64,000 nt of DNA from assembly GCA_963772765.1 (NCBI GenBank), contig CAVYYP010000006.1, positions 26,091-90,090 on the forward strand, in the 5' to 3' direction. Shown piece after piece: positions 6,184 to 61,879 of this stretch. This stretch comes from Candidatus Bathyarchaeota archaeon (GTDB lineage Archaea > Thermoproteota > Bathyarchaeia > Bathyarchaeales > Bathyarchaeaceae). Position 1 is the stretch's first letter; every line of letters begins with the position of its first letter. Both the position numbers and the translations under genes were made by a program. Below the pieces are notes generated by a model. It was not told where the DNA came from, did no database searches, and worked only from the letters and a program-made list of their open reading frames with translations.

Positions 6184-8301
6184 TTGTACGTACTCTACAA
6201 AGGTAGGAAACAATCAATTTTGGGGCAAAAGACACTAGAAGATACGCTAAAGGCTTTCGGATTGACTGACAGAGAGACAGAAATATACATCTATTTAGCA
6301 AAGCAAGGAACCCAAAAGATTAGCCAAATTTCTAAGGCTTTGAAAGCCAACAAAGGACTGGTCTATAGGGTCCTAAACAGTTTACAAAATAAAGAGCTAG
6401 TCCAGGTTACTCTTGAATCCCCTACACGTTACATTGCAGTTCCTTTTGAAAAAATAATTGACAATTATATAAAAACAAAACGAGAAGAAGCAGCTCATAT
6501 TGAAGAAAAAAAACAAGATTTACTTTCAGATTGGAAAAAACTTAACCAAACAAATCTTGAACCAACCCTAGAAACATTTTCTGTAATTGAAGGAGAAAAA
6601 AAAGTATTCCGTAAAATATCTCAGATGGTTAAAGAAACAAGAAAGGAATTAGTCTCAATTGCAACAGTTAATGGTTTAATTCAAGCGGAAAAATATGGTG
6701 TCTTAGATACAATAGTAAATCATCCTTCAAAGTCAACGATAAAGTTTCGATATATAACTAATGTTAATAAAGAGAATATAACTTCAATCAAATTCCTGTT
6801 GAGAAGACATAATTCATTTTTTGCGTTAAAAGGAAAATATCCAGATTTACAAGATCATCTATTTACTAGATTGGTAATTAGAGACAAAGAAGAAATAATG
6901 CTATTCATAAATGATCAAAACCAAATAAATTCAACAAACTCGATAGATGCAGTCTTATGTACAAACTGTAAGTCAATCATTCATCCATTTTATGGACTGT
7001 TTGAAGAAATATGGAACAAATCATCAGATATTGAAGATGTTATTGAAGAAATTGAAAATGGAATAACACCAGCAACTATAGAACTAATTAAAGAACCAAG
7101 CAAAGTCAAAAAAGTATACACACAGGCTTTTAATGAAGGAAAAGATGTTTTAATTGTAACTTCATCTAAAGGGCTTCTTGAACTTGAAAAAAATATAAAC
7201 TTGGTAAAAGACCGGCATAAAAATGGGGCATCAACAAGAATATTAGCTCCAATCACAAGCCAAAATCTTGAAGTTGCAAATAAACTCATGCAATATTGTG
7301 AGATAAAGCACATACCTGATGGATATAAGGAGATTACCGTTGTTGATTCTCAAAAACTCTTCATCTTTAATGATTTTCCATTGACCACAAATGATGTCAA
7401 CAAAAGACTCACCTTCAATAATATTTTGTACACTGAGGAAAAAGAACGCATACTCAAAACTAAGAAACGGTTAGAGAATATTTGGCAAAACTCAATAAAT
7501 CCATCACACTTAGCACTGGAATCTATTATCGATCCAATAGAGTCAATCACCCGATCGAAACCAGCTTCAAAAAAACCCTCATCTGAAGTGATATATGATT
7601 ATTTATTGTCTAAACCAGTGATTTATCAAACAAGTCCAGGTGAATTGACTGAGAAAGAAGTTATAAAAGAAATTCTATCTCAAGAAGAGTCAACAAATTC
7701 AAAGAAATCCATCAAATGTTATTGTAAAATTGGACTTGCTGCCATTAATCCACCAATTCATCTTAATCTACCAAAGCTCTTAATTCAAATCACACAGATA
7801 GATAAAAAATCCTCTTTTGGAGCTGAAGATAGGTTAGTGTTCCATCTATGGAAAGAAACAGCGGACGGATTCAAGTATGTACCAGTGGCTATCATAGGAG
7901 ATAACCCCAATTTTCCTGTTGAAATATTAACCAAAGGTCAATATCGTAATACACCTGCAGCAAAGAATTTCCATTTACTTAAAAGAGAAGAAATTCAATT
8001 CCAAATGTACGGAAATACATTCCTTGCAAGTTGGCTTGTTCCTATAAAGCTTGATGACAAATTAGTCTTGCCACCAGGGACCATTATTCTTGAAACATAT
8101 GGAAAAGTTAACACAAAAAAAGTCGTCCTTGAATATCCAAACGGAGCTAAATATAAAATCCTCTACAATAGATTGGATTCATTTATCACATTCATGCATG
8201 GGTCCTCAAAATATGACGGACCAGGAACAGACGGTCTCTTGTTAAGAGATGCATTTATTGAAATATATCTTCCTGAGCAACAAAAGAATCTAAAAAAATA
8301 G
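6184..8301 (+). CDS. TrmB-family HTH transcriptional regulator with a very long C-terminal extension
   Basis: N-terminal LKAFGLTDRETEIYIYLAKQGTQKISQISKALKANKGLVYRVLNSLQNKELV matches the TrmB winged helix. At 705 aa it is about twice the usual length. The exact start is uncertain (TTG 6184 or a downstream TTG). Confidence 0.7.
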   Translation: MYVLYKGRKQSILGQKTLEDTLKAFGLTDRETEIYIYLAKQGTQKISQISKALKANKGLVYRVLNSLQNKELVQVTLESPTRYIAVPFEKIIDNYIKTKREEAAHIEEKKQDLLSDWKKLNQTNLEPTLETFSVIEGEKKVFRKISQMVKETRKELVSIATVNGLIQAEKYGVLDTIVNHPSKSTIKFRYITNVNKENITSIKFLLRRHNSFFALKGKYPDLQDHLFTRLVIRDKEEIMLFINDQNQINSTNSIDAVLCTNCKSIIHPFYGLFEEIWNKSSDIEDVIEEIENGITPATIELIKEPSKVKKVYTQAFNEGKDVLIVTSSKGLLELEKNINLVKDRHKNGASTRILAPITSQNLEVANKLMQYCEIKHIPDGYKEITVVDSQKLFIFNDFPLTTNDVNKRLTFNNILYTEEKERILKTKKRLENIWQNSINPSHLALESIIDPIESITRSKPASKKPSSEVIYDYLLSKPVIYQTSPGELTEKEVIKEILSQEESTNSKKSIKCYCKIGLAAINPPIHLNLPKLLIQITQIDKKSSFGAEDRLVFHLWKETADGFKYVPVAIIGDNPNFPVEILTKGQYRNTPAAKNFHLLKREEIQFQMYGNTFLASWLVPIKLDDKLVLPPGTIILETYGKVNTKKVVLEYPNGAKYKILYNRLDSFITFMHGSSKYDGPGTDGLLLRDAFIEIYLPEQQKNLKK

Positions 8302-8331
8302 CCTAGTTATAAGACAGTAAAAGGTGTTTGA

Positions 8332-8904
8332 ATGCAAAAAACAAGAGATATAACGTTGATTATCTTTTTTGCCGTTTTATCATTCATCTTTTATGCAACA
8401 ATAGGTCAATTGCCTGTCACCATAACTGGAATAAGAGGCATTGGATATGGTTTTCTTATTATTCATGGGATTCCTCAAGCAGTAGCAATGATGTTCTTTG
8501 AAGGTAGAAGATGGAGATTTTTTGCTATGCACACCCTCTTTGCATTTCTTAGTTTACCTACACAATTGGGTGGTGCACCCTTTGATATTATTGGAAGAAT
8601 CCCTTTAATTTTGGTGGGCTTCGTTGCCGATGTTGTAGTAAATAGTTTTTACAAAATAGCCAAGAAAAACGATAAAATCAAGTGGTGGATTACACTCGGC
8701 TCAGCTTTTCGTTGGGCAATTGACCCTTTTATTTTTCTTATCATTATAAACCTACACGTTGCAACTGACATTCTACCTATTTACCTTCCAATATTTCTAC
8801 TATTGACGCCCCTAATTGTTGTCGAAGGTGCAGCTACAGGATATATCGCATACAAAATCTACATTAGAGTCAACAAAACTAGTAATTTAAGAACGAAACA
8901 ATAA
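8332..8904 (+). CDS. polytopic membrane protein (hypothetical)
   Basis: 190 aa, 5-6 hydrophobic helices, AGGTG SD-like motif. Contains no cysteine. Confidence 0.5.
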   Translation: MQKTRDITLIIFFAVLSFIFYATIGQLPVTITGIRGIGYGFLIIHGIPQAVAMMFFEGRRWRFFAMHTLFAFLSLPTQLGGAPFDIIGRIPLILVGFVADVVVNSFYKIAKKNDKIKWWITLGSAFRWAIDPFIFLIIINLHVATDILPIYLPIFLLLTPLIVVEGAATGYIAYKIYIRVNKTSNLRTKQ

Positions 8905-9236: not shown

Positions 9237-9302
9237 GTCAAAGATTCTTGACAAACAAAATCAGTTATGTTTAGTTAATGTTTCTTGACAAAAACCCTTT
9301 TC
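9237..9302 (+). promoter_or_regulatory. conserved ~65-nt upstream module, copy C
   Basis: GTCAAAGATTCTTGACAAACAAAATCAGTTATGTTTAGTTAATGTTTCTTGACAAAAACCCTTTTC, ending 22 nt before ATG 9325. About 85% identical to copy B in the same gene-relative orientation. Confidence 0.6.
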
Positions 9303-9324
9303 ATATCATCTGACTAAGGTATTA

Positions 9325-10384
9325 ATGGTGCCCATGGTGAGAATTAGCAGGGTAGTTCTCATTTTATTGTTTGTTCAAATGTTTCTTGTTGTGCATTTGC
9401 CTGTAGCATACGCGGTTGAGTTGACGGTACCAGAGAAGACCTTGGCTTTTTTGGAAGAAGTGGCAATGTTAGACATGACAAAATATAATGCAACATTAGA
9501 AATATTTGATGCTCGTTACCCCGACGAGTTAGATGGTTTGGTCCAGCATAATGTGTATTATATTCTTGTTTCCGATGAAAACGAAATGGAAGCAGCTTTT
9601 GGTTTCAAAAACGAATCCTTTGCACACTGTATGTTAGGAACCCTCACTTCCCCAATTTATTCTCAACCCCAACCAATCAACATAGTTGATTTTGCCAAAG
9701 GTTTTCTGCAGAGATACCAAAGTTACATTGGAGACGCAATCTTTGATGGTGTAAAAGATTATGATGAAGCAAGAAGTATACTAGACACGGTTGATGTAAC
9801 AAAAAATGTATCAATCAATTCCGATCGTGTAAAGCTTGAAGTGGTTAGCAGAACAGAGTATACTGCATTGATTTGGGATGTACGTTTTGAACGGTGTGCC
9901 ATTTCCATGGATGACCCTCGAGTTTCGTAATGGATCAGTTTGTGGTTTCGATGACAGCTGGCGCCTCTATACGGCTGGTAGCACAGACATAAAAATTTCT
10001 AGGGAAGAAGCTGTATACATTGCATTGGAATATTTAGAAGACTTCTCTTGGACTGTGGGAGATCAAGAGATAACAGATTTTGAGATACTAGAAGAACCAC
10101 GAAATATAGAATTGTTTGCAACTAGAAGCAGAGAACCTCTAACAGTATATCCCTATTGGCGTATTGAATTATATCTCGACACAGTTTACCCCGGAAACGT
10201 TAACCGTATATCCTTGGCAATCTGGGCCGACACAGGAGAAATAATTTCTTGCATTCCCCTAGGAGGAGGCGGAGTACCTCCAATCCCAGAATTTCCGTCA
10301 TGGACACCTCTGTTGATTACACTTGTTGTTGCTTTATTTTCTGTCATTTACAAAAAAATGAGTTGGAAAGAGCTGATGAAATGA
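9325..10384 (+). pseudogene. secreted PEF-CTERM protein (PepSY-like region), split by one frameshift
   Basis: ORF 9325..9930 carries only the signal peptide (MVPMVRISRVVLILLFVQMFLVVHLPVAYA). ORF 9878..10384, in another frame, carries only the C-terminal IPEFPSWTPLLITLVVALFSVIYKK sorting signal. The two overlap at 9878-9930. Confidence 0.65.
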
Positions 10385-11431
10385 ATAGAATCAAATCAAC
10401 AGTCGTTGTATTACTGATTCTTTCCCTTGCTTTGGTTACTTTTCCTCAAGTTAATTTAGTTAAAACTGAACCGAACACGATTGTTGTTCCAGATGATTAT
10501 GCTACTATTCAAGAAGCTATCAACAGTGCAACTGGGGGTGACACAGTTTATGTTAGGAAAGGTGTTTATCATGAAAACTTGGGAATAAACAAACCGATAT
10601 TTTTGATAGGAGAAGAAAGTTCAACAACAATCGATGGAAACACCTCACAAAGCTATAGGGTGCCAATAAACATCAACACCTCAAATGTTACTGTTTCTGG
10701 TTTTACTCTTAGTTATGGCTATGCAGGAATCCAATTTCATGGTGTAGGAAATTGTACTGTAGCGGAAACAGAATAACAAATGGTCAGTTTGGAATAGAGG
10801 GGAAACATGGAATAACATAACTGATAATATTTTTGAGAACATAGGAGTTGGAGGTGCTATACGATTTGACGGTTCAACTCACAATTTTGTTCATAAAAAT
10901 TATTTCAGTTCCTGTAATGAGGGTGTCCAAATTATGTGGGGTAGCAACTACAATACAGTTACCGAAAATACTATCGTAAACTGTAAGAATCAGGGTGTTA
11001 GGCTGCAAGAATCTGACTGGAATATAGTGACAGAAAATACAATAAAGAACAATGGAATTGGAATTAGCATTTACAGAGCTAATACCAATTTTATAGAAAA
11101 AAATAATTTCATTGATAATAACCAAGAAGTTGTAGCAAGTGAGTCATATGCACTTGCATGGGGATATGGTTATTCTTTAAACAGTTGGAAAGAAAACTAT
11201 TGGAGTAATTATACCGGTTCAGATAACGATGGAGATGGAATAGGAGACACCCCTTACGAAATTAATGAGGTTAATCGAGACAATTATCCACAAATAGAAC
11301 CAATTGACATGCTTGTACTAATCCCAGAGTTTCCATCATGGACACCTTTACTGATTATGATTGCCGTGGTAGCTCTTACTGTAATTTACAGGCGAAAGCT
11401 AACTCCAAAGAATCAGGGGATAAGAGACTAG
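10381..11431 (+). pseudogene. right-handed beta-helix (NosD-like) PEF-CTERM surface protein with two frame breaks
   Basis: ATG 10381 overlaps the previous stop (ATGA). MNRIKSTVVVLLILSLALVTFPQVNLVKTEPNTIVVPDDYATIQEAI runs in frame 1 to 10776. Homology continues in frame 3 (NRITNGQFGIEG), then frame 2 (WNNITDNIF...NYWSNYTGSDNDGDGIGDTPY...IPEFPSWTPLLIMIAVVALTVIYRRK). Confidence 0.7.
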
Positions 11432-13377
11432 TGAAATCGTCGTCTATAGTTGTTCTGTTACTTCTTTCTTCTATTGTTTTTGTTTCTCTTCAACAAATTA
11501 AAGCAGAGTCTAAAACGATTGTCGTTCCCGATGATCATGTCACTATTCAAGAGGCTATTGACAATGCATCTGAAGGTGACACAATTTTCGTGAAAAAAGG
11601 AAACTATGATGGACCTATAGGTGAAACCTTACTAATTGATAAGACAATCTCGCTAATAGGTGAAGGTTCTTCGGTAATTGGCGAAGACACTACAACATTA
11701 AATTTACATCCACTTTTACTCAATACAACCATCTTTGGTCAACCTTATCCAAAATATAACACATCACTTATTATAAAATCCAATAACGTTACAATCTCAG
11801 GTTTCACAATTAAAATTCCGCCTTCTCCATCTGGGGGAGGTGGAGGAGCCTCTGTAATCGGTAATGGAACTCAAATCGTCGATTGTATTATCAACATACC
11901 AGACATATCCTTGCAAGGTTCTTGCTCAAAAATCACAACAACACAGTTGTTTATTAGTAATCTAGCAATTAGAGGATCAAATCAGAGTATTACTAAAAAT
12001 ATACTTTTTAACGGAGATTTGGAAATAACCAGTTCCTTTAACAATATAATCGAAAATGACATTGGCAAAGAAATACGTTTGAATGGATCATATAACAAAA
12101 TTGTTGGCAACTCATTTTATAGAATTTTCTTGGAGCATTCAGATTTAAACACAATTTCTTACAATAATTTTAGCTGTATTTGGTTGGGTATTTATGGTCA
12201 TACTTGCTCAAATAACACAGTATTTGGAAACATCTTGGATGGAGGCTACATTTGGGGCGTTTTAATGGGTGACGGAGCCCATAACGTCTTTTATGACAAT
12301 ATTATCAAGAATTTTGGTGGAAGCCATGATGGGTATGGTGTGGCAATTGGCGGAAACCATTTAGTGGCTGAAAATAACACTTTTTTTCATAACATCTTTT
12401 TGGACAACAACAAGAATGTCGGATATAATTGGGACCAACTTGGAACAGGCAATTTCTGGGATAATGGAATTGAAGGTAATTATTGGGATGATTATACGGG
12501 TACAGATGCAAATGGAGATGGAATTGGGGACGCTCCTTACATTATTGATGACAAAAATCAAGATAATTTTCCATTAATGAAACCACCCATAATTCCGGAG
12601 TTTTATTCATGGTTACCTGAAGATCAAAATTATCAAGAAATTACCGTCAGGACTGATGGAAGTATTGAACCGGATACAAATTTGCTTGAAAGAAATGGGA
12701 ACACTTACACCTTTAAGGGAGACATTTTTGGCACTATTATGGTTCAAAAAGGTGGTATCACAATTGACGGCGCAGGATATACTCTTCAAGGAAAGAAAGA
12801 AGTTGGTAACGTTGATGAAAGGGGCGTATATTTGGTTGGACCTGACAGGTCTAGTCCGTTGTGTAGAAATGTTGTTGTAAAGAATTTGAGAATTGTTAAT
12901 TTTTGGGAAGGCATATTCTGTATTGGTTCAAGCAACAACAGCATAATAGGTAATTACTTTGAAAATGCAGGTATCCATCTTTTAGGTAGTCCAAACTATG
13001 GCCCAGACTTAATTAAGGGCAATATTTTCGACGGTTCTGTTATTTTTGTTGATTATAATACAGGAGGGACAGATGTTATTACTGAAAACAATTTTTTTGA
13101 TGGTTATGTAATTGTTGGTTTGTCTGTTGTCCCTATTGTGGAAAGAAATTATTGGAGTGATTACAACGGAACAGATAGTGATGGAGACGGCATAGGAGAT
13201 ACTCCATACGTTTCTTCATATGTTTTAGATGAACCAGTTCAAGATAATTATCCAATGATGTCTCCATTGTACATAGAAGTAATCTCAGAATTTCCCTCTT
13301 GGTTTCTATTTCCACTGTTCATCATATCAACGTTAGTTATGATTATTGTTAGGAATATGATTAGAAAGAAGGATTAA
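11431..13377 (+). CDS. double-module beta-helix PEF-CTERM surface protein
   Basis: In-frame GTG 11431 overlaps the previous TAG. Signal peptide, AESKTIVVPDDHVTIQEAIDNASEGDTIFV cap, two NYW(D/S)DYxGTDxxGDGIGDxPY modules, and a terminal ISEFPSWFLFPLFIISTLVMIIVRNMIRKKD. Confidence 0.8.
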   Translation: MKSSSIVVLLLLSSIVFVSLQQIKAESKTIVVPDDHVTIQEAIDNASEGDTIFVKKGNYDGPIGETLLIDKTISLIGEGSSVIGEDTTTLNLHPLLLNTTIFGQPYPKYNTSLIIKSNNVTISGFTIKIPPSPSGGGGGASVIGNGTQIVDCIINIPDISLQGSCSKITTTQLFISNLAIRGSNQSITKNILFNGDLEITSSFNNIIENDIGKEIRLNGSYNKIVGNSFYRIFLEHSDLNTISYNNFSCIWLGIYGHTCSNNTVFGNILDGGYIWGVLMGDGAHNVFYDNIIKNFGGSHDGYGVAIGGNHLVAENNTFFHNIFLDNNKNVGYNWDQLGTGNFWDNGIEGNYWDDYTGTDANGDGIGDAPYIIDDKNQDNFPLMKPPIIPEFYSWLPEDQNYQEITVRTDGSIEPDTNLLERNGNTYTFKGDIFGTIMVQKGGITIDGAGYTLQGKKEVGNVDERGVYLVGPDRSSPLCRNVVVKNLRIVNFWEGIFCIGSSNNSIIGNYFENAGIHLLGSPNYGPDLIKGNIFDGSVIFVDYNTGGTDVITENNFFDGYVIVGLSVVPIVERNYWSDYNGTDSDGDGIGDTPYVSSYVLDEPVQDNYPMMSPLYIEVISEFPSWFLFPLFIISTLVMIIVRNMIRKKD

Positions 13378-13378
13378 C

Positions 13379-14440
13379 ATGAGAAACCTATCAAATATAA
13401 TTGTGTTTCTTTGTTTGCTTCTTTTAATTCCTCCTTTATCTGTTGTTTACGCAATTCAAGATTCTTGGGAAACTTTAGCGCCATCACCAATAACTCATTT
13501 CATAGGTTCTGCTGAGATAGATGAAAAAATATACCTTGTTGGAAGTAATGTAAATTCGAAATATGATCCTGAAACAAACACTTGGACGCCATTGACTCCT
13601 CCACCAATTTCCAACTCTTGGAGTGATGTTGTTGTTTGTCAAAACAAAATCTATCTAATAGGTGGAAATGCGTCAAAACCAACCCAAGTTTATGATCCTA
13701 TTTCTGATACTTGGGAGAATAGAACTTCAATACCTACAACAAGAAGCGCACTGGAAGCTAATGTTGTAGATAACAAAATCTATGTAATAGGTGGACAAAT
13801 GCTTGCAGGTTTATACATTATTAATCCTTCGAGTGCAAATGATGTTTATGATCCAGCAACCGATTCATGGTCCAAAATGGCATCAATTCCTGTACCAGTT
13901 ATGGGGTATGCTTCTACAGTTTTAGATGGCAAAATTTACATAATCTCAGGAGGTAACACAGGAGGACCAGACTACGAACCTACAAATCTGGTTCAAATTT
14001 TTGATCCAAAAACAAACCAATGGACAAACGGTACAAATATTCCTACTGGTGTTGTCTCTGCTAAAGCATGTTCAACAACTGGATTATTTGCACTAAAACG
14101 GATCTATGTGTTGGGTGGGACAGTAACTTCTTATGCTCGTTGGGCTGCCTACAATGTCATTAACTTAATTCAAATATATGATCCAGAATCTGATATTTGG
14201 ACCAACGGTTTGGCTATGCCAAGTTCACGTTTCTTCTATGGGGCTATCTGTCTAAACGATGAAATCTATGTAATTGGAGGTATAAATGGAGAAAATTATT
14301 TGGATGTAAACGAAAAATATACACCACTTGATTACATCCCAGAGTTTCCTTCATTAACACTTTTGGTTGCTGGTTTCTTTGTTATCTCTGTAATATCGAT
14401 ATTTTATAGGCGCCATTTTAACCCGAGGAGGAGAAAATGA
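13379..14440 (+). CDS. Kelch-repeat beta-propeller protein with PEF-CTERM-like anchor
   Basis: Signal peptide; six blades marked by KIYLVGS/KIYLIGG/KIYVIGG/KIYIISG/RIYVLGG/EIYVIGG; C-terminal IPEFPSLTLLVAGFFVISVISIFYRRHFNPRRRK. Confidence 0.8.
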   Translation: MRNLSNIIVFLCLLLLIPPLSVVYAIQDSWETLAPSPITHFIGSAEIDEKIYLVGSNVNSKYDPETNTWTPLTPPPISNSWSDVVVCQNKIYLIGGNASKPTQVYDPISDTWENRTSIPTTRSALEANVVDNKIYVIGGQMLAGLYIINPSSANDVYDPATDSWSKMASIPVPVMGYASTVLDGKIYIISGGNTGGPDYEPTNLVQIFDPKTNQWTNGTNIPTGVVSAKACSTTGLFALKRIYVLGGTVTSYARWAAYNVINLIQIYDPESDIWTNGLAMPSSRFFYGAICLNDEIYVIGGINGENYLDVNEKYTPLDYIPEFPSLTLLVAGFFVISVISIFYRRHFNPRRRK

Positions 14441-16269
14441 AGAAACTCAAATTAACAGTCGTTGTATTATTGGTTTTTTCTCTTGTTTTAGTTACTTTTC
14501 CCCAAGTTAATTTAGTTAAAGCTGAACCGAACACGATTGTTGTTCCCGACGATTATGGTTCTATCCAAGAAGCTATTGACAATGCATCTGAAGGAGATAC
14601 AGTATATGTGGAAAGTGGAGTGTATATCGAAAATCTTGTTATTAACAAACTTATTTCACTAGTAGGCAAAAACAAAGATACAACAATAATTTACTGCAAT
14701 GACAACATTCATCCCACAATTCTGGTAAGCAAAAACGGAGTGAACATTACAGGTTTCACCATACAAAACAATGTTCCATCTCCTTCAAATACTCGTGGCG
14801 GACTTGCAGCCGTGCATTTGCTTCATGTGAGCTATTGCAACATATACCAAAACATTATGGTTACCAGTGGATATGGCGTCTGGCTCTATAACTCTCATTA
14901 CAACAACATATTTGACAATACCATAAAAAATACAAATTACGGAATTTTTGTCGAATCCTCCTTAAACAACACCATAACGCGAAATACAGCTTCAAAGGGT
15001 TGGAATGGAATCTGGCTACAGACATCCTCAAACAACATATTTAGAAACAACAATATGACAGATAATTATTGCAACTTTGCAGTCTCAGGTACTGAACTGT
15101 TGCACTATTATAATGATGTAGATAAGTCAAACCTAGTTAATGGAAAAAGAATTCATTATCTTACTGACCAAGAGAATATAGAAATAAGTTCTTCATTTTT
15201 TCCAGATTTAGGGCTCCTAGTTCTCGTAAATTGCAGAGAAATAACAGTCAAAAACTTGAACATCGTAGACAACTTTTTTGGAATTCTTCTCTTCAATACC
15301 TTAAACTCTACAATAACAAATAACTACATAGGAAACAACAAAAAGGGAATATGGCTCAAATCCTCCAACAGCATAACGATTTGCGATAACAATTTAGATT
15401 CAAACAGCGATGACGGAATTCGACTTGAAAATTCGAAGAACATACTCGTTAGAAACAACACGGTACAGAACACAGGATTTAATGGCATATACCTTGGAGG
15501 AGGGTCAGATAACAACTACATAATTGAAAACATAATGACCAAAAATGGTAACAAAGCCATCAATCTTGAGTCTTCCTCCAATAACAACATAATAAATAAC
15601 GAAGTGACCAACAGTTATTTCGCTGTCAGACTCTATACATCCACCTACAACAAGATAGAAACAAACAGAATAAATTCACCCAAATCTGAAAATGTAAACT
15701 TAATGCATTGTTATCAAGGTGTTGTTATTGACCATCATTCTGACAACAATATCATTGTTAGAAATGTAATTTCAAATAATTTGGAATACGGTATTAAAAT
15801 TCAGTCTTCATCTCAAATCATTATAAGTGAAAACATCATTTCAGCCAATAAGAAGGGTATCGACCTTAGTTCTTCTTCAAGTAACACTATCACAGCAAAT
15901 AACATTAGCGAGTCAAGTGAATTTGCCCTCGGCTTATTAAGTTCTAATGATACCGTTTTTCACAGCAACAATTTCATCAACAATGTGAAACAAATTTACC
16001 ATTATAGCACACGTACCACCTCAGTGAACCTTTGGGATAACGGTACAACAGGTAACTATTGGAGTGATTACGTTGGACAGGACGTCAATAACGATGGCAT
16101 AGGAGATTCGCCATATGTCATTAACGAATATAACCAAGACAACTATCCACTAATTCAACCCGTAATAGTTCCAGAATTTCCTTCATGGACAATTCTGCCT
16201 TTGATTTTAACCATTACACTATTTTCAATAATTTTCAAAAGAAAGCTACACAAAGCTAAGGTCTCTTGA
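14437..16269 (+). CDS. beta-helix repeat PEF-CTERM surface protein
   Basis: ATGA overlap with the Kelch gene and a GGAGGAG SD. The N-terminus is nearly identical to gene 10381. Many NxIxxN beta-helix rungs, NYWSDYVGQDVNNDGIGDSPY, and VPEFPSWTILPLILTITLFSIIFKRKLHKAKVS. Confidence 0.85.
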   Translation: MKKLKLTVVVLLVFSLVLVTFPQVNLVKAEPNTIVVPDDYGSIQEAIDNASEGDTVYVESGVYIENLVINKLISLVGKNKDTTIIYCNDNIHPTILVSKNGVNITGFTIQNNVPSPSNTRGGLAAVHLLHVSYCNIYQNIMVTSGYGVWLYNSHYNNIFDNTIKNTNYGIFVESSLNNTITRNTASKGWNGIWLQTSSNNIFRNNNMTDNYCNFAVSGTELLHYYNDVDKSNLVNGKRIHYLTDQENIEISSSFFPDLGLLVLVNCREITVKNLNIVDNFFGILLFNTLNSTITNNYIGNNKKGIWLKSSNSITICDNNLDSNSDDGIRLENSKNILVRNNTVQNTGFNGIYLGGGSDNNYIIENIMTKNGNKAINLESSSNNNIINNEVTNSYFAVRLYTSTYNKIETNRINSPKSENVNLMHCYQGVVIDHHSDNNIIVRNVISNNLEYGIKIQSSSQIIISENIISANKKGIDLSSSSSNTITANNISESSEFALGLLSSNDTVFHSNNFINNVKQIYHYSTRTTSVNLWDNGTTGNYWSDYVGQDVNNDGIGDSPYVINEYNQDNYPLIQPVIVPEFPSWTILPLILTITLFSIIFKRKLHKAKVS

Positions 16270-16295
16270 TGAAGCGCCCTGTTTTTAGGTCTCTG

Positions 16296-17015
16296 TATCG
16301 AATTTGTATTGTCTATGTAAATGCTGATGCCAACTCCATTATTCCTTACCGTATTTTCTGACACAGAGTTCCAATCAGATTCTTGTAATCTTATTTCAAC
16401 ATCATTACAATCCAAAATCGTGTTCTCAGTAATTGTATTGTAGTGGCTCCCCCACATGACTTGGACACCTTCAGGTACAGAAATTGATAAAATTTCTTTG
16501 AACAATATTATGGCTTGAACCATCAAACCTAATTGCACATCCAAGTCCAATTTTCTCAAAAATATTATCTGTTATTTTATTCCAATTACCACCTCGAATT
16601 CCAAATTGACCATTGGTTATCATGTTTTCCGAAATTGTGCAATTCTCTTCTCTTTGAAATTGGATTCCAGCATAACCATAGCTTAAGGTGAAACCTGAAA
16701 CTGTAACATTAGAGCAAAAGATGTTTATTGGCACCCTATAGCTCTGAGAAGTATTACCATCAATAATTGTTGAATACATATTTTCACCAATTAAACGAAT
16801 TGGAATACGAATGCCCAAATTTTCATGGTAAACACCATTCTTCACATAAATTGTGTCACCAGAATTGGCATTTTGAATTGCTTCTTAAATAGTGGAATAA
16901 TCGTCTGGAACAACAATTGTCCTCGGTTCTGCATTTACTACACCAATCTGTGGAAAAGTAACCATAACAAGAGAAAGAACCAGTAATGCAACGAATGTTG
17001 ATTTGATTCCTACAT
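16296..17015 (-). pseudogene. inverted, 3'-truncated remnant of a beta-helix PEF-family paralogue
   Basis: Minus-strand translation parallels gene 10381 (…TFPQIGVVNAEPRTIVVPDDYSTI*EAIQNANSGDTIYVKNGVYHENLG…ITNGQFGIRGGNWNKITDNIF…EGVQVMWGSHYNTITEN). The start is disrupted (ATGTAGGAATC versus ATGAATAGAATC). TAA at 16887-16885 replaces the conserved Gln. There is one frameshift near 16480. No DGDGIGD or PEF tail remains. Confidence 0.75.
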
Positions 17016-17044
17016 TTTACATGAATAAACTAGTCTGCAGGTAT

Positions 17045-17108
17045 GAAAAGGGGTTTTTGTTAAGAAACATTGACCAAAATCAAATCCTTTTGGTCAACAT
17101 AATTTGAC
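17045..17108 (-). promoter_or_regulatory. conserved ~65-nt upstream module, copy A
   Basis: Gene-sense: GTCAAATTATGTTGACCAAAAGGATTTGATTTTGGTCAATGTTTCTTAACAAAAACCCCTTTTC. Contains an exact 10-bp inverted repeat, TTGACCAAAA (17070-17079) / TTTTGGTCAA (17088-17097). Lies 29 nt upstream of the remnant's ancestral ATG. Confidence 0.6.
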
Positions 17109-17127
17109 TTGTGCTTAAGTAGGGTAA

Positions 17128-17580
17128 CTATGCTATAACTCCTTCTGTTCCTCTTATCTCAAAGTGTTTATCCAGAGCGATGTGAGTGATGTGGTTGAAT
17201 GTGAAATAAATCGATGTGTCAGTGCTATTGCTTGTCTGTATATAGTTGGCTTTGTCCATTATGTAGTATTTGTCGATTACTGTGAGTTCTCCCCAAATTA
17301 GGTCATTTGGAATTGTTATGTTACAAAAAGTATCTTCAGGGGGTCCTCTAAAATCAAATTCAACAATGTTAGCTGGGACTTGAGGTAGATTAACAGTTGG
17401 CGCAGAGGAGTAATTACTTCCAATAGTTACGATATATGTTTTCTCTCCAACTGAAAGAGGATATGTGTATAACGTACCTTCTACCACTCCATTCTCTAAA
17501 GGATTAAGAGCTACACCCAAAATTACAATCAATGAACTAAACAGGAGAATCGCAATAAGGACAATCGGAAACTTGCTCAC
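17128..17580 (-). CDS. secreted or membrane-anchored hypothetical protein
   Basis: GTG start after GGTGAT; N-terminal anchor MSKFPIVLIAILLFSSLIVILGVAL; no recognisable domain. Confidence 0.55.
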   Translation of the reverse strand: MSKFPIVLIAILLFSSLIVILGVALNPLENGVVEGTLYTYPLSVGEKTYIVTIGSNYSSAPTVNLPQVPANIVEFDFRGPPEDTFCNITIPNDLIWGELTVIDKYYIMDKANYIQTSNSTDTSIYFTFNHITHIALDKHFEIRGTEGVIA

Positions 17581-17612
17581 CTAATCACCAACATAAAACG
17601 CGTTTATACCCA

Positions 17613-17676
17613 GAAAAGGATTTTTGTCAAAAAACATTGACCAAATAACAGGTTTTGTTTGTCAATAATCTTTGAC
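17613..17676 (-). promoter_or_regulatory. conserved ~65-nt upstream module, copy B
   Basis: Gene-sense: GTCAAAGATTATTGACAAACAAAACCTGTTATTTGGTCAATGTTTTTTGACAAAAATCCTTTTC, ending 32 nt before GTG 17580. Confidence 0.6.
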
Positions 17677-18243: not shown

Positions 18244-18703
18244 AACAGATGGCAGAGTCTGAATTTACCGCTTTTCTCGATTAGAATATAAGAGAAGTGG
18301 AGAGACAACTGAAAATAATTGGCTAGCCTTAGACCTACAAAAACAGTTTCATCTTAGAAACAACGAACATAGCTTGGCTATCACCCAACCTGATGTCCAG
18401 AGTTTTATTCATGGATTTTTCTGCCAATATTCTCTTTTGCCACGTTATCTTCAATGTTAATTAGAAAAAAGATGTTTCATCAACGGACATAAGAACATTC
18501 AAAGTATATTTAACTAACCAACTATTCTTACTATGCCATCAAAAGCGAAATACAAACTGAAAAAGAAAGCTCCATTCTGTTTGTTCAATAGAAAGTGAAT
18601 TCATGTTTGTTTTTGAATTGGCTTTCCAACTTCATCCAAAATGAAATCGTAAAATATCAGTTATGATTACATTCAATTATAACCTTAATGCTGGGATGAA
18701 GAA

Positions 18704-22026: not shown

Positions 22027-24678
22027 ATGGGAAATTTTAAAAGTCAAAAAAATACTTGCAGTTGCATTTGCTTTTGCATTTGTTATAGCTTCGTTAACAT
22101 CAATACAAATTCTAGTGAATGCTCAAGGGAGTGAAATCACAGGTGGACCTTTACCTGCAGGAGTAACACCAGAATGGACCGTTGAGACTGTCGCCTATCT
22201 CAGCTTTAGCCCGAACCCAATAGGAGTAAATCAGGAGCTCCTTATCAACCTGTTGACAACACCCGCACCAGGAGCAAATCGTGCACACACTGGATACACT
22301 GTAACAATTACGAAACCAGATGGATCAATCGAAGTAATTGGTCCCGTGAATTCCTATGTAGCAGATGGAACATACTGGTTCACATACGTTCCCGACCAAG
22401 TTGGCACATGGAAACTCAAGTTTGATTTCGCAGGAGATTATTACCCAGCTGGACGTTATGTCGATGGTGTATTGGACAATTCAGCTCCACCAGGATTTTC
22501 TCTTTTCGTACGTGATTACCCTGAAACATACTATTTGCCTGCATCTACTCCAGAACAAGAACTTGTTGTACAAGAAGATATAGTGTATTCATGGCCTCCT
22601 TCAGCTCTTCCAACCGACTACTGGACTAGACCAATATCGGTTGAAAACAGGGAATGGTTCATGATCGGAGGAAACTACCCCTACTCGTACTACAACAGCA
22701 TTCAAAACTACGCTGGTCCATTTGTGCATTAGGACCCAACACAGCACATATCCTTTGGAAACAACTAGGTGCACTGTCAGGATTAATCGGCGGCGAAACT
22801 GGAATCTATGGCATAGAAAGCGGAGGTGGCACTCCCAGCGTAATTTACATGGGACGATGCTATGAAACCAAGACGGTGCCAATCAATGGTGTCCCTACAA
22901 GCTGTGCTGTATGCTATGATTTGCGAACTGGAGAGCAGTACTATGCGATACCAATAGCCCAAGGCGGAGTAACCCCGTCATATCTATCATACTACAGAGG
23001 AACAGCAACCGGGGGACTTGGAGGAGAATCTGGCAGTTTCACAGTGGATTTGCTTACTATAAGTGATGGAAAGCTCTATAAAATAAATCCATTAACTGGA
23101 GCTGTCACTCTCGATGCGTCGATTTCACCAGTTACTACAGGTAGCTTTTACCACAACAATTTTGTGTTAAGCGTTCAAACAATTGGTTCTGGCCCCACCC
23201 GCGAATACCGCCTAATTAATTGGACAACAGAAGGAACCAGCACCAACTTCGCTAGCAGAGTACTTGGGAATGTGAGTTGGCCAGTTAGCACTGCACCCGG
23301 ATCACTTGGTCTGATTGCCGATTACGATACAGGTATCTGCGTTGGAACAATAGCTGGCATCTTCGGTGCAGGTTCAGGAGGAAAAGCTGTAACTGGAGAC
23401 TTTGGATTAGCTGGTGGAGCATATGGAACACGCATTGTAGGTATAAGCATGGTAACTGGAGCAGTGCTTTACAACTTCACCGTCGACGACACATCATTTT
23501 ACCCCTTGTCTGATACAGTTGGAGAAGGAAAAATCGCCATACCTATGGACAATAGAAAGCTATATTGTTTCGATCTGATCAGCGGAGATTTGGAGTGGAT
23601 AAGCACAGAGCTTGACTATCCATGGGGAGGTTATGGAGCTTATTCGGCAGCATCAGCCTATGGTAACTTCTATTGGCCAACATACGATGGAGTAGTTGCT
23701 TTTGACTGGGAGACTGGAGAAAGAGTTTGGCACTTCCAATATGTAAGTGTTCCATTTGAAAGTTCTTATTCTATGGCTAACGGCACTGCGCAAAACCCAT
23801 TCTTCGGCCGACCACTTGTTGCAGATGGAAAAATCTACGTAGCAAATACTGAACACACTCCAACACAGCCCGTTAAAAGGGGTTGGAGAATTTTCGCTCT
23901 TGACGCAATTACAGGTGAAGAGATTTGGAACGTAACAGGCTTGATGACACCTGGTACAGTAGCCGATGGATATCTTACAGCCAGCAACTCCTACGATGGA
24001 TATATGTACGTTTTCGGCAAGGGATTAACCGCTACAACAGTTACTGCACCTGACCTTTCAGTACCTAAAGGAACAGCTTTCACAATAAAGGGAACAGTCT
24101 TAGATCAGTCTCCTGCTCAACCAGGAACTCCTTGTGTTTCTAAAGACTCAATGACAATACAAATGGAATACTTACACATGCAGCATCCAATTGATGGACT
24201 TTATCACGACCAAATAATTACTGGTGTTCCAGTAACACTATCAGCCATAGCTGAGGACGGCACCTATGTCGACATTGGCACTGTAACTTCAGATGGATAT
24301 ACAGGCGCTTTCGGAGCATCATGGATCCCAACAACAGAAGGCACATACAAAATTATTGCATCTTTTGATGGAGACGATTCATACGGCAGCTCAAATGCAG
24401 CAACATATGTAACAGTTGGTCCAGCAGCTTCAGCAGCAGCTCCAATTGAACCAGAACAACCTACGCCAACTGAACCTACACAACCAACACCAAGTGAACC
24501 TACACCAGAAGAACCAACACCTGAACAGCCCACACCCGAAGAGCCAACACCAGAAGAACCCGAACCAACAGTACCAGAACACCCACTCATCAGCGCAGAA
24601 CTAACAATCGCCATAGCAGTAGTAGCTGCATGCACTATTGGTGCAGTAGCCTACATCGCACTAAGACGACGAAAATAA
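22027..24678 (+). pseudogene. large secreted beta-propeller (PQQ/BamB-like repeat) surface protein, decayed paralogue of 49672..52302
   Basis: ATG 22027 after GGTGGAG gives MGNFKSQK. The frame breaks in the A7 run at 22046-22052 and resumes as ILAVAFAFAFVIASLTSIQILVNAQG. A second break near 22725 joins PFV(H*) to GPNTAHILWKQ. Collinear with the intact paralogue along its whole length. Confidence 0.75.
24442..24582 (+). repeat. Pro/Thr/Glu-rich tandem-repeat linker
   Basis: PIEPEQPTPTEPTQPTPSEPTPEEPTPEQPTPEEPTPEEPEPTVPEH, made of degenerate 15-nt units. Absent from the paralogue. Confidence 0.8.
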
Positions 24679-29093: not shown

Positions 29094-29234
29094 TAACTTA
29101 GTTTTAGGTCATGAATGGAAGTTTGCTTCCCATAGTTCTGATGATAATTTAACCAAAAATAGTGCAATCGTTTGTGTTTCTTTGTATACGTTAATGTTTT
29201 AAAAACAACGGCATTACCTTATTTGGGGTTTATT

Positions 29235-29702
29235 TTGAATGCAAAATATCAAGTATATAGAGATAAGGCAGGAAAATTTAGGTTTCGACTCAGAGCAGCG
29301 AACAATAAAATTGTAGCTGTTAGCGAGGCATACGAAAGCAAAACTGGATGCATGAACGGAGTCAAATCTGTTCAAAAAAACTGTGACGCTCATGTCGAAG
29401 ACAAAACAAAACCCATGGAAAAACTATCTAATCCAAAATACGAGGTCTTCACAGACACAGCAGGCGAGTTTCGGTTCAATCTAAAAGCATCCAACGGAGA
29501 GATCATAGCAGCAAGTGAAGGATATGAAACGAGAGAAGGAGTAATGAATGGAATTGAAGCAGTTCAACGAAGCTGTGACGCCGAAATCGAAGATTTCACT
29601 GTAGAGAAAGCTACAAAAGAGATGGATGAGACAGCAAGAATTGAAGAAGTCTGCAAAGAACCAACAACATGGACTACACAATACAGTCCTACTATTGGAT
29701 GA
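29235..29702 (+). CDS. tandem DUF1508 (YegP-like) domain protein
   Basis: Two repeats: YQVYRDKAGKFRFRLRAANNKIVAVSEAYESKTGCMNGVKSVQKN and YEVFTDTAGEFRFNLKASNGEIIAASEGYETREGVMNGIEAVQRS. The in-frame TTG at 29235 is a more plausible start than the track start at 29172. Confidence 0.75.
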   Translation: MNAKYQVYRDKAGKFRFRLRAANNKIVAVSEAYESKTGCMNGVKSVQKNCDAHVEDKTKPMEKLSNPKYEVFTDTAGEFRFNLKASNGEIIAASEGYETREGVMNGIEAVQRSCDAEIEDFTVEKATKEMDETARIEEVCKEPTTWTTQYSPTIG

Positions 29703-30024
29703 CTTACCAGCCTCTGTTAAATCAGACACCACAGTAACATTTACTGGAAAATTGACCGATCACGATACAGTAGAAGGCGTCGGATGCGCTGAAATATACA
29801 TCTATGAACAAGACCGCTCATTTATGAGAGATGACTTACTGGTATCCGGAGCAACAAACAATGACGGAACCTTCGGGATTGATTGGGCAGCAAAACAAAA
29901 AGACTTCTGGGACGACAAAATACAAGTCTACGCATTATTCAAAGGCACTGAAAATTACAACCCAGCAAAAAGCGACATAAAAAACCTAAAAGTCCTATGG
30001 TATGCCAAAGACCACCTAAAATAA
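29626..30024 (+). CDS. hypothetical beta-rich protein; possibly the frameshifted C-terminus of the DUF1508 gene
   Basis: Overlaps the preceding ORF by 77 nt in another frame. TVTFTGKLTDHDTVEGVGCAEIYIYEQD...GTFGIDW looks like an Ig/CarboxypepD_reg-like sandwich. Confidence 0.4.
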   Translation: MRQQELKKSAKNQQHGLHNTVLLLDDLPASVKSDTTVTFTGKLTDHDTVEGVGCAEIYIYEQDRSFMRDDLLVSGATNNDGTFGIDWAAKQKDFWDDKIQVYALFKGTENYNPAKSDIKNLKVLWYAKDHLK

Positions 30025-30671: not shown

Positions 30672-31361
30672 TTAGAGTAAACTTGGCAGCTCTGTAATTT
30701 TGGAGATAACATAGTCTGGTTGAATGTTTGTCGGTTCTTCGTCTCCTTTTATCCATACTGTATTCATTCCAGCATCTTTGGCTCCTTGGACATCGTCCTT
30801 TAAGGAGTCGCCAACATGAACTGTCTCGCTGGCTTTGATCCACATGCTCCGCAAAGCATAGATAAAAATTTCGGGATCAGGTTTTCTTACGCCTAAATCT
30901 CGAGACAGAATGATATAATCGAAATATTTTGCAAGCTCAAGTTTCTCCAAGGCAAGTTTTGAGACGGTAGTGATAGCATTAGCGACTATTGCCAGATGGT
31001 ATTTCTTGCTCAATTCTTCTAGCATTTCTCTTACGCCTGGAAGCAGTTCAATTCTGTAGAAACGATTATAGAGACTTTCGATATGGTCGAGCCGTTCTTG
31101 TGTAATTTCCAATCCAAGATCATGCAACAAAATGCTGTAAAGCAAATCAAACCGTAATTCAATATTTCTTGCCTGAGACTTGTTCATTTTTTCAAGCATT
31201 GCGTGTCTGGCTTTGTTAATTTTAGCACGTTTTCCAGAGTACCCAATCTTTTTGAGGTAACCGATCAATGCTTTCTCGTAACTTTCACTATCAAGTGCAC
31301 CATGAGCTAGGGTGCCATCAAGATCAAAGGTTATTGCTTTTATTTGCTCCATAACTAACAA
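30672..31361 (-). CDS. HAD-superfamily hydrolase (subfamily IA)
   Basis: Motif I ITFDLDGTL and motif IV VGDSLKDDVQGAKDAGMNTVWI. Confidence 0.8.
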   Translation of the reverse strand: MLVMEQIKAITFDLDGTLAHGALDSESYEKALIGYLKKIGYSGKRAKINKARHAMLEKMNKSQARNIELRFDLLYSILLHDLGLEITQERLDHIESLYNRFYRIELLPGVREMLEELSKKYHLAIVANAITTVSKLALEKLELAKYFDYIILSRDLGVRKPDPEIFIYALRSMWIKASETVHVGDSLKDDVQGAKDAGMNTVWIKGDEEPTNIQPDYVISKITELPSLL

Positions 31362-31388: not shown

Positions 31389-31467
31389 GAGTGGCTGGGT
31401 CAAATTTTCTTGACAAATAAAGACCATTTTTTTAGATTTTTTGAAAAAATTTTTGGTCAACAAAACC
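31389..31467 (+). promoter_or_regulatory. diverged fourth copy (D) of the upstream module
   Basis: GTCAAATTTTCTTGACAAATAAAGACC...TTTTTGGTCAACAAAACC shares the GTCAAAnnTTCTTGACAAA head and the TTGGTCAA...AAAACC tail. It faces an ORF-free 600 bp. Confidence 0.35.
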
Positions 31468-52302: not shown

Positions 52303-52313
52303 ACAAAAATTTT

Positions 52314-52333
52314 CCCTCCCTCTTTTTTGGGAG
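52314..52333 (+). terminator. T-rich hairpin or oligo-T terminator candidate
   Basis: CCCTCCCTCTTTTTTGGGAG lies 12 nt after the stop. Conserved with 24696-24713. Confidence 0.45.
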
Positions 52334-52879
52334 TAAATATAGTTTAGAAGAATTATGGAGAGCTGAAAATGACTCAATCACAGAGAAAAAAGCATCTTTC
52401 TCATCCTTTAAAAAATGCTTTTTCATTATTGCTCACTAATCAACAATGATTGAATCTCAGCAAATCTCCATCATTTAAAAAATATAATATGGTTTTTTCA
52501 TCTTTCTCTCTCCTTTCGTTAACCTTGTTGAGTTCCAGCAAACCATTTCCATCAAAAAATCAATGTAAATCACAATTAAGTGCGCACAGTTTTGGTTATT
52601 ATTCTTGAAAAAACATTTCAATTAAATAAGTGAAGAAATTGAGCAAAATGCGTGTGCATCAGCAAACTTCATCTTTTATTTGATATTTAATTTTATTTAT
52701 TTACGACCATCTCCACCCCCTAATACAAAATCCAAAAAAGTCTTTCAGTTCAAGTTTTATTTGTACTAAAATCAATATTAAATGGTAAGTTGTAACTTAA
52801 GAATAGCATAATAGCAGTACATTGTTGAAAAATATTCTTTTTCAGAAAACAGCAGCACAGCACACATCTGGAAAAAAGT

Positions 52880-53743
52880 TCACAAGCACCTGCTATGCTT
52901 TTGGATTGTCCATGAACCATCGCATACACCAGAATTCAAATTGAAACCTTCTCGGCAACAACCAAACGTTAGACTGTTTTTTTCAGCTAATTCTTTAGCT
53001 TTTCTCATCAACTCAAACCGCAAGTTTTTTGCCAAATAAATGGAACGTCCCACACGTTCTCCATCGCGGAAATAATATGGCTGTAGTTTTTCTGCAAGGT
53101 CAGGAAATACTGCCCTAAACCGTTTCCAATTGTCAGGTTTTATCTTGTATGTTGAGCAGGTAACGTGCAAGGCGCCCAAATCTGCAATCTTGTTCATCAA
53201 GTCCGCTAGGTCGTCGTTGAGAAAAGGAATAACAGGGTCAATCCGAACAGTAGTCGGAATACCTGCATCAACCAGAGTTTCTATGGCTTTAAGCCGCCTA
53301 GAAGAAACAGGAGCACCAGGCTCAAGCCTCCTCGAAAGCCTATCATCTCGGGTCAAAACGGTTACCGAAACCGCACAAGGAACATTCTGCAAAACATCGA
53401 TGTCTCGTGTCACCAAATCCGATTTCGTGATAATCTGAACCCTGCAACGACTGTTTGCCAATACCTCCAAGCATTTTCTGGTCAACTCCATCTTTTGGTC
53501 TAGCCGAGGATACGGATCAGAAGAATTAGACATCGACACCAACTCACCTCCCAGTTTAGCAGCTTCTCTTCTGAGTCTGGAGATTAGATTCTTTTTTGGT
53601 CTGCAATCACAAAAATTCGAAATATACGAGGAGGCATAACAGTAAAGGCAGGCATGGTCGCATCCAGTGTAAGGATTGAAGGTCAACTTGGACGGGCAAG
53701 TGCAAAGCGGAGAATTCCAAGGATCAAACACTGAAAGCAGCAT
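52880..53743 (-). CDS. radical SAM protein (SplB / DNA-photolyase-like COG1533 type)
   Basis: CDHACLYCYASSY (CxxxCxxC) preceded by FNPYTG. Start taken at the internal ATG (MLLSVFDPW). Confidence 0.75.
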   Translation of the reverse strand: MLLSVFDPWNSPLCTCPSKLTFNPYTGCDHACLYCYASSYISNFCDCRPKKNLISRLRREAAKLGGELVSMSNSSDPYPRLDQKMELTRKCLEVLANSRCRVQIITKSDLVTRDIDVLQNVPCAVSVTVLTRDDRLSRRLEPGAPVSSRRLKAIETLVDAGIPTTVRIDPVIPFLNDDLADLMNKIADLGALHVTCSTYKIKPDNWKRFRAVFPDLAEKLQPYYFRDGERVGRSIYLAKNLRFELMRKAKELAEKNSLTFGCCREGFNLNSGVCDGSWTIQKHSRCL

Positions 53744-60209: not shown

Positions 60210-60415
60210 CTTATCGTTTCTCCTGATTGTTATTGGACAGCATGCTAGACTAAAAGCACACCTATAAGCATTATTGTATGAAAGACGATTTATGTTAAAG
60301 TTGTAATAATGCAAAGAACGTTGAATATACCGAGTGAATTGCTCAAAACGCTAAACTCAACTCTTTGCTTTCTTCGTGTCTAAACTATAGATGCAAATTA
60401 TGTATATGGAAACAA

Positions 60416-61848: not shown

Positions 61849-61879
61849 ATCTTTTAAGCCTTTTTTGAAAAAAGCAAAT

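Follow-up and report, generated by a model that had tools for sequence, protein, structure and literature searches.

Most of the archaeosortase systems described so far come from Euryarchaeota, with the PEF-CTERM signal and archaeosortase C defined in groups such as the Methanosarcinales and ANME-2, and NCBIfam/Haft annotation pairs the PEFG-CTERM signal (TIGR04296) with thaumarchaeosortase (TIGR04297) in the ammonia-oxidising Nitrososphaeria. To our knowledge, ArtA of Haloferax volcanii is the only archaeosortase that has been studied experimentally. The Bathyarchaeia are among the most abundant archaea of anoxic sediments, and we know of almost nothing about their cell surface beyond micrographs of an S-layer and a sheath. 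A cultivated relative possesses an S-layer plus an outer sheath (PMC10477458), and ArtA removes C-terminal helices of the type considered here, including one at an internal site derived from a gene fusion (PMC6098224). Here we analyse an island of genes for PEF-tailed surface proteins in a 64-kb stretch of a Candidatus Bathyarchaeota contig (CAVYYP010000006.1, positions 26,091 to 90,090; hereafter the window, in whose own numbering all positions are given).

The island is best explained, with a probability of roughly 60%, as a birth-and-death array of genes for exported surface proteins that combine Sec leaders and varied ectodomains with IPEF tails that are probably processed by a sortase, that share a promoter and whose ends recombine. 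It extends the known principle of archaeosortases and C-terminal sorting signals and adds no new one, and it is partly decayed and fast-changing.

Five tailed genes and their homologues

Five co-oriented units start at 9325, 10381, 11431, 13379 and 14437 on the plus strand and are joined, as an initial sequence-only reading had noted, by an ATGA overlap (10381-10384), a TAGTG junction (11429-11433), a 1-nt spacer (13377/13379) and another ATGA overlap (14437-14440). A hydrophobic N-terminal leader and a C-terminal tail of motif, helix and K/R cluster are present in all five. Gene 1 (9325-10384) encodes a signal peptide, three PepSY-like domains and an IPEFPSW tail (motif at 10286), with its frame broken at 9879 by an additional T; gene 2 (10381-11431) encodes a parallel beta-helix with an IPEFPSW tail (motif at 11324) and has suffered two 1-nt deletions. 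Gene 3 (11431-13377) has a GTG start, is a fusion of two beta-helix genes and ends in ISEFPSW (13285). Gene 4 (13379-14440) combines a signal peptide, a Kelch beta-propeller and an IPEFPSL tail (14339), and gene 5 (14437-16269), which is intact, encodes a protein of 610 amino acids (aa) with a parallel beta-helix body and the tail VPEFPSW (16171). The ending [IV]PEFPS[WL], initially ascribed to all five, is thus found in genes 1, 2, 4 and 5 but not in gene 3. In the six-frame translation of the window, [PS]EFxS[WL] occurred eight times against 0.34 expected from Markov shuffles (shuffle maximum 2), and the island observation is therefore real and not due to chance.

The tripartite layout of motif, hydrophobic helix and basic cluster stands at the extreme C-terminus in genes 1-5, while it is internal in a further PEF open reading frame (ORF) at 61400-62482. 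The best-scoring NCBIfam model for the tails was PEF-CTERM (TIGR03024; curated cutoff 23 bits), with weaker matches to Loki-, Heimdall- and PEFG-CTERM. Searched as full-length proteins, gene 2 scored 22.0 bits (the best) and gene 1 13.9 bits, and genes 3, 4 and 5 were not reported; as isolated tails, the scores were 25.7 (gene 2), 17.2, 15.9, 13.3 and 12.9 bits, with no match for the ISEF tail. Gene 5 has 1192 homologues, although scanning species-representative genomes with it turned up no relative; 82 of the 120 homologues listed carry a PEF motif plus helix with the consensus [AIV]-I-P-E-F-P-S-W...K-K-R-L, in which the residues flanking PEF are I in 95%, P in 83%, S in 81% and W in 73% of the tails. 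When 77 homologue tails were searched in isolation, 33 matched TIGR03024 at E<=0.01 and fewer matched the PEFG-, Heimdall- and Loki-CTERM models (PEFG-CTERM: four tails, best E 6.9e-07). The same tail occurs on unrelated ectodomains, for example on 57 of the 92 gene 1 homologues. Because the model scores are low or partial and the homologues have a distinct consensus, the tail appears to be a lineage-specific relative of PEF-CTERM that current models capture in part.

The ectodomains themselves were assigned with Pfam, NCBIfam and structural searches. Beta_helix and NosD domains were detected in genes 2, 3 and 5 (gene 5: NosD 1.3e-56, Beta_helix 1.8e-40), and gene 4 contains Kelch repeats above the Pfam gathering score (Kelch_1 with E 3.6e-37 and 125.9 bits over six stretches; Kelch_6 with 105.7 bits). 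The NosD subfamily model TIGR04247 gave 178.8 bits at best (gene 5). Since no score exceeded 179 bits against a cutoff of 300, genes 2, 3 and 5 are generic parallel beta-helix surface proteins and not NosD orthologues. The gene 1 family comprises 92 homologues, and all those with a named source are assigned to Bathyarchaeia. No Pfam or NCBIfam model matched this family, either gene 1 fragment included, and none of 57 members matched PepSY sequence models at E<=0.01, which led us to reject PepSY membership by sequence model. An AlphaFold model of the family (pLDDT 87.5), however, shows three units of helix and sheet, as in the PepSY fold (a helix packed on a four-stranded sheet, in tandem), and Foldseek matched it to the C-terminal PepSY domains of YpeB (5boi, E 1e-6, probability 1.00) and to the vibriolysin propeptide (3nqy_A, E 8e-6). 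Since the fold matches yet no sequence model does, the predicted structure supports the term PepSY-like at the level of the fold only. Hence the cargo proposed in the sequence-only reading stands as far as Beta_helix/NosD domains, Kelch repeats and a PepSY-like fold are concerned. Likewise, the cap TIVVPDDYxxIQEAI and the pre-anchor module NYWSDY...DGIGD...DNYP are shared by the beta-helix members, but both were found throughout the whole beta-helix protein family and are not specific to the island.

A candidate processing enzyme outside the window

The window itself encodes no sortase, in agreement with the initial reading: none of its ten multi-transmembrane ORFs matched the archaeosortase models, and tblastn with the enzyme of a relative (see below) gave no hit better than E 0.4 in the 64 kb. 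The 190-aa multi-transmembrane protein at 8332-8904 was considered as a cryptic sorting enzyme and rejected, as it has no Cys and no family match; its homologues are always paired with a large TrmB-family gene, in arrays without PEF genes, indicating that it goes with the TrmB-family gene upstream and not with the island. The other multi-transmembrane ORFs were likewise discarded, being a Na/Ca exchanger, a UbiA prenyltransferase, a PHO4 transporter and an ICMT-like protein. At 6184-8904 (plus strand), a TrmB-family protein of about 700 aa is followed by the Cys-less multi-transmembrane protein of about 190 aa, for which no family match was found, and such pairs form arrays of several copies in relatives (L054-L058).

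Screening the multi-transmembrane ORFs of fetched Bathyarchaeia loci identified a 383-aa protein (P0225; locus L009, 17729-18880, minus strand) that scored 49.7 bits on the exosortase/archaeosortase signature TIGR04178, above the cutoff of 23, and for which a hydropathy scan predicted eight hydrophobic segments. L009 is colinear with the window from the EF-2 gene to window position 52895, where synteny breaks (window 49672-53743 versus L009 16528-18880); beyond this point lies the archaeosortase gene in L009 and a PQQ-propeller surface gene in the window. Genes for at least four PEF-tail proteins lie on this 358-kb contig (L009) as well. The window contains two paralogous large surface proteins of this PQQ-type beta-propeller kind (22115-24678 and 49672-52302, both plus strand), whose anchor differs from the PEF tail in having a P/T/E-rich linker, 'PLIS', a helix and 'LRRRK'. 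The gene at 22115-24678 is frameshifted near 22700 and has no recognisable leader.

An exhaustive search for relatives of P0225 returned 285 cluster representatives at E<=0.001. A metagenome scan yielded 43 loci with a P0225-type gene (L059-L101, Bathyarchaeia-type contigs), and all 39 full-length proteins from them matched family models, TIGR04178 included; thaumarchaeosortase was the best specific model, matched by 39 of 39 (best E 4.4e-25). The motifs WPC257AG, NxLR302 and FH322 are invariant in these 39 sequences, and by analogy with ArtA (PMC6098224), C257, R302 and H322 would be the catalytic residues. In four of the 43 loci (L068, L078, L084 and L098), the distance between the sortase gene and a PEF-tail ORF is no more than about 1 kb. 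The usual neighbours are psmB (with the sortase gene upstream of it), AMMECR1, GT2 and GT4 genes: of the 38 loci in which the sortase gene is full-length, 25 have it adjoining psmB, usually together with glycosyltransferase genes. No psmB, AMMECR1 or glycosyltransferase gene of this kind is present in the window, and no sortase was found in the PEF-gene neighbourhoods of L049-L051. Since the sortase gene adjoins psmB so frequently, the absence of an archaeosortase beside the island, initially presented as noteworthy, is unremarkable. The family-model matches, the invariant Cys, Arg and His and the PEF-tail genes nearby suggest that the Bathyarchaeial lineage has a plausible cognate enzyme belonging to an unnamed archaeosortase subfamily. 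Nothing relevant on archaeosortases or exosortases in Bathyarchaeia was found in the literature.

In the mechanism that we propose, each protein would be exported through its N-terminal Sec-type leader, which can be read directly from the sequence, and would expose three PepSY-like domains, a right-handed parallel beta-helix or a Kelch propeller in front of a tail of IPEFPSW, about 20 hydrophobic residues and K/R. After export, the helix of the tail most likely keeps the protein in the membrane until an enzyme of the archaeosortase family, whose gene would lie in another part of the genome, most likely recognises IPEF and cuts the helix off, which would leave a lipid anchor by analogy with the action of Haloferax ArtA on PGF-CTERM. 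Each transcription unit stands behind the same two-palindrome promoter, to which a putative dimeric regulator would bind. The conserved 5' leader and cap and the 3' pre-anchor and tail could act as homology arms, so that bodies would be exchanged, fused, duplicated, inverted and lost, and this turnover would in turn explain why relatives differ in cargo, how the fusion gene and the truncated and orphan remnants arose and, possibly, where the frameshifts came from.

An alternative explanation for the tail is that IPEFPSW, helix and K/R form a permanent anchor that is never processed, with the motif serving, for example, packing against the S-layer or lipid headgroups and the enzyme acting on other substrates. 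Several results favour such an anchor or otherwise weigh against processing by a sortase. The TIGR03024 cutoff was reached by one of the six tails, and by this one (gene 2, 25.7 bits) only as an isolated tail; the initial assignment of the proteins as archaeosortase PEF-CTERM substrates is thus backed by the tripartite layout and by PEF-CTERM as the closest NCBIfam model, but not by the scores of most tails. In addition, 35 of the 92 gene 1 homologues have no PEF tail, most of them carrying a motif-less linker, a plain helix and KKK at the same place, and a permanent helix anchor can therefore evidently substitute for it. P0225 stayed below the cutoffs of both thaumarchaeosortase (TIGR04297, 63.8 against 250 bits) and ArtC (TIGR03762, 39.1 against 100 bits), its counterpart is absent from the window, and adjacency of sortase and substrate genes was restricted to four of 43 loci, three of them with one common arrangement, the sortase gene usually standing beside psmB and glycosyltransferase genes and not beside PEF genes. 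Experimental cleavage or lipidation of a PEF-type tail was not found in the accessible literature, and genes 1 and 2 may be non-functional in this genome. Against a permanent anchor stand the very strong conservation of the motif across unrelated cargo and across the class and the fact that all weak model matches are to known sorting-signal families. PEF-tail genes are also found directly beside the sortase gene in the four loci named above, and the enzyme appears, by analogy, to retain its catalytic Cys, Arg and His. We therefore consider a permanent anchor unlikely and favour an exported, sortase-processed tail.

Shared promoter, turnover and decay

The island consists of two convergent blocks with three transcription units. 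The plus-strand unit is preceded by a promoter (9237-9324) with two GTCAA-N6-TTGAC palindromes, one exact (9237-9252) and one with a single mismatch (9274-9289), and this region is conserved before homologous genes in L047, L052 and L053. Further two-palindrome copies are found on the minus strand before an inverted pseudogene (17059-17108) and at 17626-17676, where both sites are exact. The three promoters have about 90 nt in common, with two palindromes each, 34-37 nt apart. The exact palindrome occurs five times in the window against 0.16 expected, and 25 times in the window plus 101 loci (1.34 Mb); 23 of these 25 copies lie 10-140 nt before leader-bearing genes, 16 of them directly before PEF-tail genes. 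It also precedes surface-protein genes in L009, L010, L014, L015 and L047-L053, usually in tandem about 35 nt apart. We infer that the palindromes are putative sites at which a dimeric regulator controls surface-protein genes as one regulon. The upstream TrmB-family gene showed no consistent linkage to palindrome or PEF genes that would mark it as this regulator, and the exact palindrome is missing at the 61400-62482 ORF and, in more distant lineages, at the PEF genes beside the sortase gene. The two exceptions among the 25 copies precede a gene in L027 and a HAD-like gene in the window. The latter copy (31399-31414, exact) lies about 40 nt upstream of the 229-aa leaderless HAD-like gene (30672-31361, minus strand) and could either have arisen by chance or mark one more member of the regulon.

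Comparison with close relatives revealed rapid turnover of the cargo. Over 9270-10576, L053 and the window are colinear (94.5% identity); L053 then diverges inside the gene 2 cap, so that gene 1 is followed there by a different 361-aa beta-helix gene. L052 contains a Kelch gene (377 aa), a beta-helix gene (449 aa) and a gene 5 homologue (93% identity to gene 5), and it has kept the junction of a gene-2-type tail with a gene-3-type leader at 89%, joined to a gene 5 body. In L047, two gene-1-like genes are followed by a gene 5 homologue (84% to gene 5). Relatives at 93-95% DNA identity therefore differ in their cargo combinations, the recombination breakpoints fall within the conserved leader/cap and tail, and the conserved gene ends appear to behave as recombination arms. 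Because cargo sets differ even between such close relatives, the combination of beta-helix, Kelch and PepSY bodies is not the fixed, dedicated module that it had been taken for.

Several genes of the island are interrupted, fused or reduced to remnants, and the five genes do not form the intact operon initially described. Gene 1 is read as two overlapping ORFs (9325-9930 and 9878-10384), and DNA alignment with L053, the contig of P0133, an intact 352-aa homologue with 95% identity, places the frameshift at a single inserted T (position 9879, context GGGA[T]GTA). In gene 2, two 1-nt losses, in an A-run (10766-10768) and a G-run (10799-10802), break the frame into three pieces, as judged against its inverted paralogue. 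Programmed frameshifting or phase variation in these two genes is unlikely because the homopolymers involved span no more than 3-4 nt and one of the indels lies outside any run. In gene 3, residues 1-394 match complete stand-alone PEF proteins of 356-406 aa from end to end, an internal IPEFYSW (12595) with no helix behind it remains after this N half as a dead motif, and the alignment of the C half with other stand-alone proteins begins near their residue 35, just past their leaders; on these alignments gene 3 is an in-frame fusion of two beta-helix genes.

The sixth, inverted member was correctly recognised as a relative of the island. This tail-less, truncated paralogue of gene 2 (approximately 16285-17020, minus strand) is complementary to 10388-11106 (repeats I1-I4) at 73-77% DNA identity, and it is a true pseudogene, with a TAA right after the ATG, an in-frame TAA (STI*EAI), a frameshift near 16470 and a 3' truncation before any tail. 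A neighbouring 150-aa gene (17128-17580, minus strand) encodes a leader and a beta-rich 'stalk' domain without a tail and ends precisely where IPEF is expected to start (…EIRGTEGVIA*); its stalk corresponds to the domain before the tail in longer members, as compared with P0009/P0033-type C-termini '…EIIGTDAIPEFPSW'. At 18397-18492 (plus strand), an orphan tail (PEFYSW, helix and RKK) follows a stop two codons upstream, with no gene body left. A faint trace of the pre-anchor motif is visible just upstream of this tail in another frame. The seventh PEF protein, initially placed at 61880-62482, does have a leader, PEF motif and helix, but its ORF extends over 61400-62482 (minus strand, 360 aa) with no stop at 61880: a leader, a beta-rich domain and IPEFQSW with its helix (aa 173-200) are followed in frame by a basic linker rich in A/T homopolymers, another signal-like helix and a domain rich in Cys. 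A one-base change in the linker would give a stop at the expected place, a nearby GTG would provide a normal leader for a second gene, and a weak syntenic homologue (L015_9152_9733, 193 aa) stops right after its tail. The ORF is either a real fusion, like the internal-site substrate of Haloferax ArtA, or an indel artefact.

Some of this apparent decay could be caused by assembly errors, in which case the living cell would have five intact genes and the 61.4-62.5 kb ORF would be two normal genes with a lost stop between them. Unrelated genes of the window are affected as well, namely a conserved gene at 29172-30024 (plus strand) that is frameshifted near 29660 while its homologues are single proteins of 266-272 aa (67-77% identity), and the PQQ-propeller gene at 22115-24678, a paralogue of 49672-52302. 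The gene 2 indels fall in A3 and G4 runs, the linker at 61.88-61.95 kb is rich in T6, A6 and A5 runs with the expected stop one base change away, and gene 1 is intact in P0133; the contig is 160.7 kb long, suggesting long reads. However, the insertion in gene 1 and the shift near 29660 lie outside homopolymers, the same family decays nearby beyond doubt (nonsense codons, truncations, an orphan tail), and a gene 5 homologue is also interrupted in an independent metagenome contig from JGI (L052). We regard assembly error as a serious possibility that falls somewhat short of even odds. The opposite view, that the island is mostly genomic debris, a graveyard of decaying paralogues without a current role in which at most genes 4 and 5 are expressed, could draw on two interrupted genes and one fused gene out of five, together with the inverted pseudogene, the tail-less 150-aa gene and the orphan tail. 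This is quite improbable, as the two-palindrome promoter has been kept at all three units and in relatives, genes 3, 4 and 5 have long open frames whose leaders and tails are undamaged, and the tight start/stop overlaps have been preserved.

A bolder proposal is that the island is a surface-diversification locus, in which leader/cap and pre-anchor/tail would serve as homology arms to swap ectodomain cassettes among expressed genes, silent fragments (the inverted pseudogene and the orphan tail) and copies elsewhere, while all IPEFPSW proteins would form one regulon under a regulator that binds the tandem GTCAA-N6-TTGAC operator and would be matured by the unnamed Bathyarchaeial archaeosortase subfamily. 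We consider this speculative and give it a low probability; if true, it would mean programmed variation of the cell surface in a highly abundant sediment archaeon, possibly in response to viruses or substrates.

Host, significance and comparison with known systems

The host appears to be a Candidatus Bathyarchaeum-like archaeon: the EF-2 of the window (57999-60314, minus strand) is 83-90% identical to that of Candidatus Bathyarchaeum metagenome-assembled genomes, and the window encodes an archaeal UbiA prenyltransferase of the digeranylgeranylglyceryl-phosphate-synthase type. No tRNA genes or Rfam families were found in the 64 kb. Bathyarchaeum-like genomes seem to place a lineage-specific IPEFPSW tail on many unrelated exported proteins, and the Bathyarchaeia have their own clade of the archaeosortase family with intact putative catalytic residues. 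In the Bathyarchaeum-like loci examined, a palindromic promoter element is common to most PEF-tail gene units and to clustered genes for exported proteins. Tail, enzyme and palindrome together offer a way to list the surface proteome of uncultivated organisms and constitute a candidate triad of enzyme, substrate and regulator.

Among known systems, PEF-CTERM (TIGR03024) with archaeosortase C (TIGR03762) has the same tripartite C-terminus, in which a P-E-F signature precedes the hydrophobic helix and basic cluster, and in both systems the tail is found on many unrelated secreted proteins per genome while the enzyme is encoded apart from most substrates. The present system differs in its hosts, Bathyarchaeia of the Thermoproteota, in a consensus extended to I-P-E-F-P-S-W and in tails that mostly score below 23 bits. 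PEFG-CTERM (TIGR04296) and thaumarchaeosortase belong to Nitrososphaeria, the nearest related lineage at phylum level; thaumarchaeosortase is the best specific model for P0225, yet at 63.8 against 250 bits P0225 lies outside the equivalog, and the PEF motif is followed by G in PEFG-CTERM and by P in the Bathyarchaeial tail. ArtA with PGF-CTERM in Haloferax volcanii provides the mechanistic template of Sec/Tat export, a transient helix anchor, motif-dependent cleavage and a lipid anchor, and its internal tripartite site, which arose from a strain-specific gene fusion (PMC6098224), resembles the 61400-62482 ORF; the motif (PGF versus IPEF), enzyme subfamily and phylum are different. With regard to the ectodomains, the island genes have the same Pfam NosD, Beta_helix and Kelch domains as NosD/CASH-type beta-helix and Kelch proteins but differ from NosD itself in scoring 179 bits against the cutoff of 300 and in having no nos genes nearby, and the gene 1 family resembles the PepSY domains of YpeB and of M4 protease propeptides in predicted structure only.

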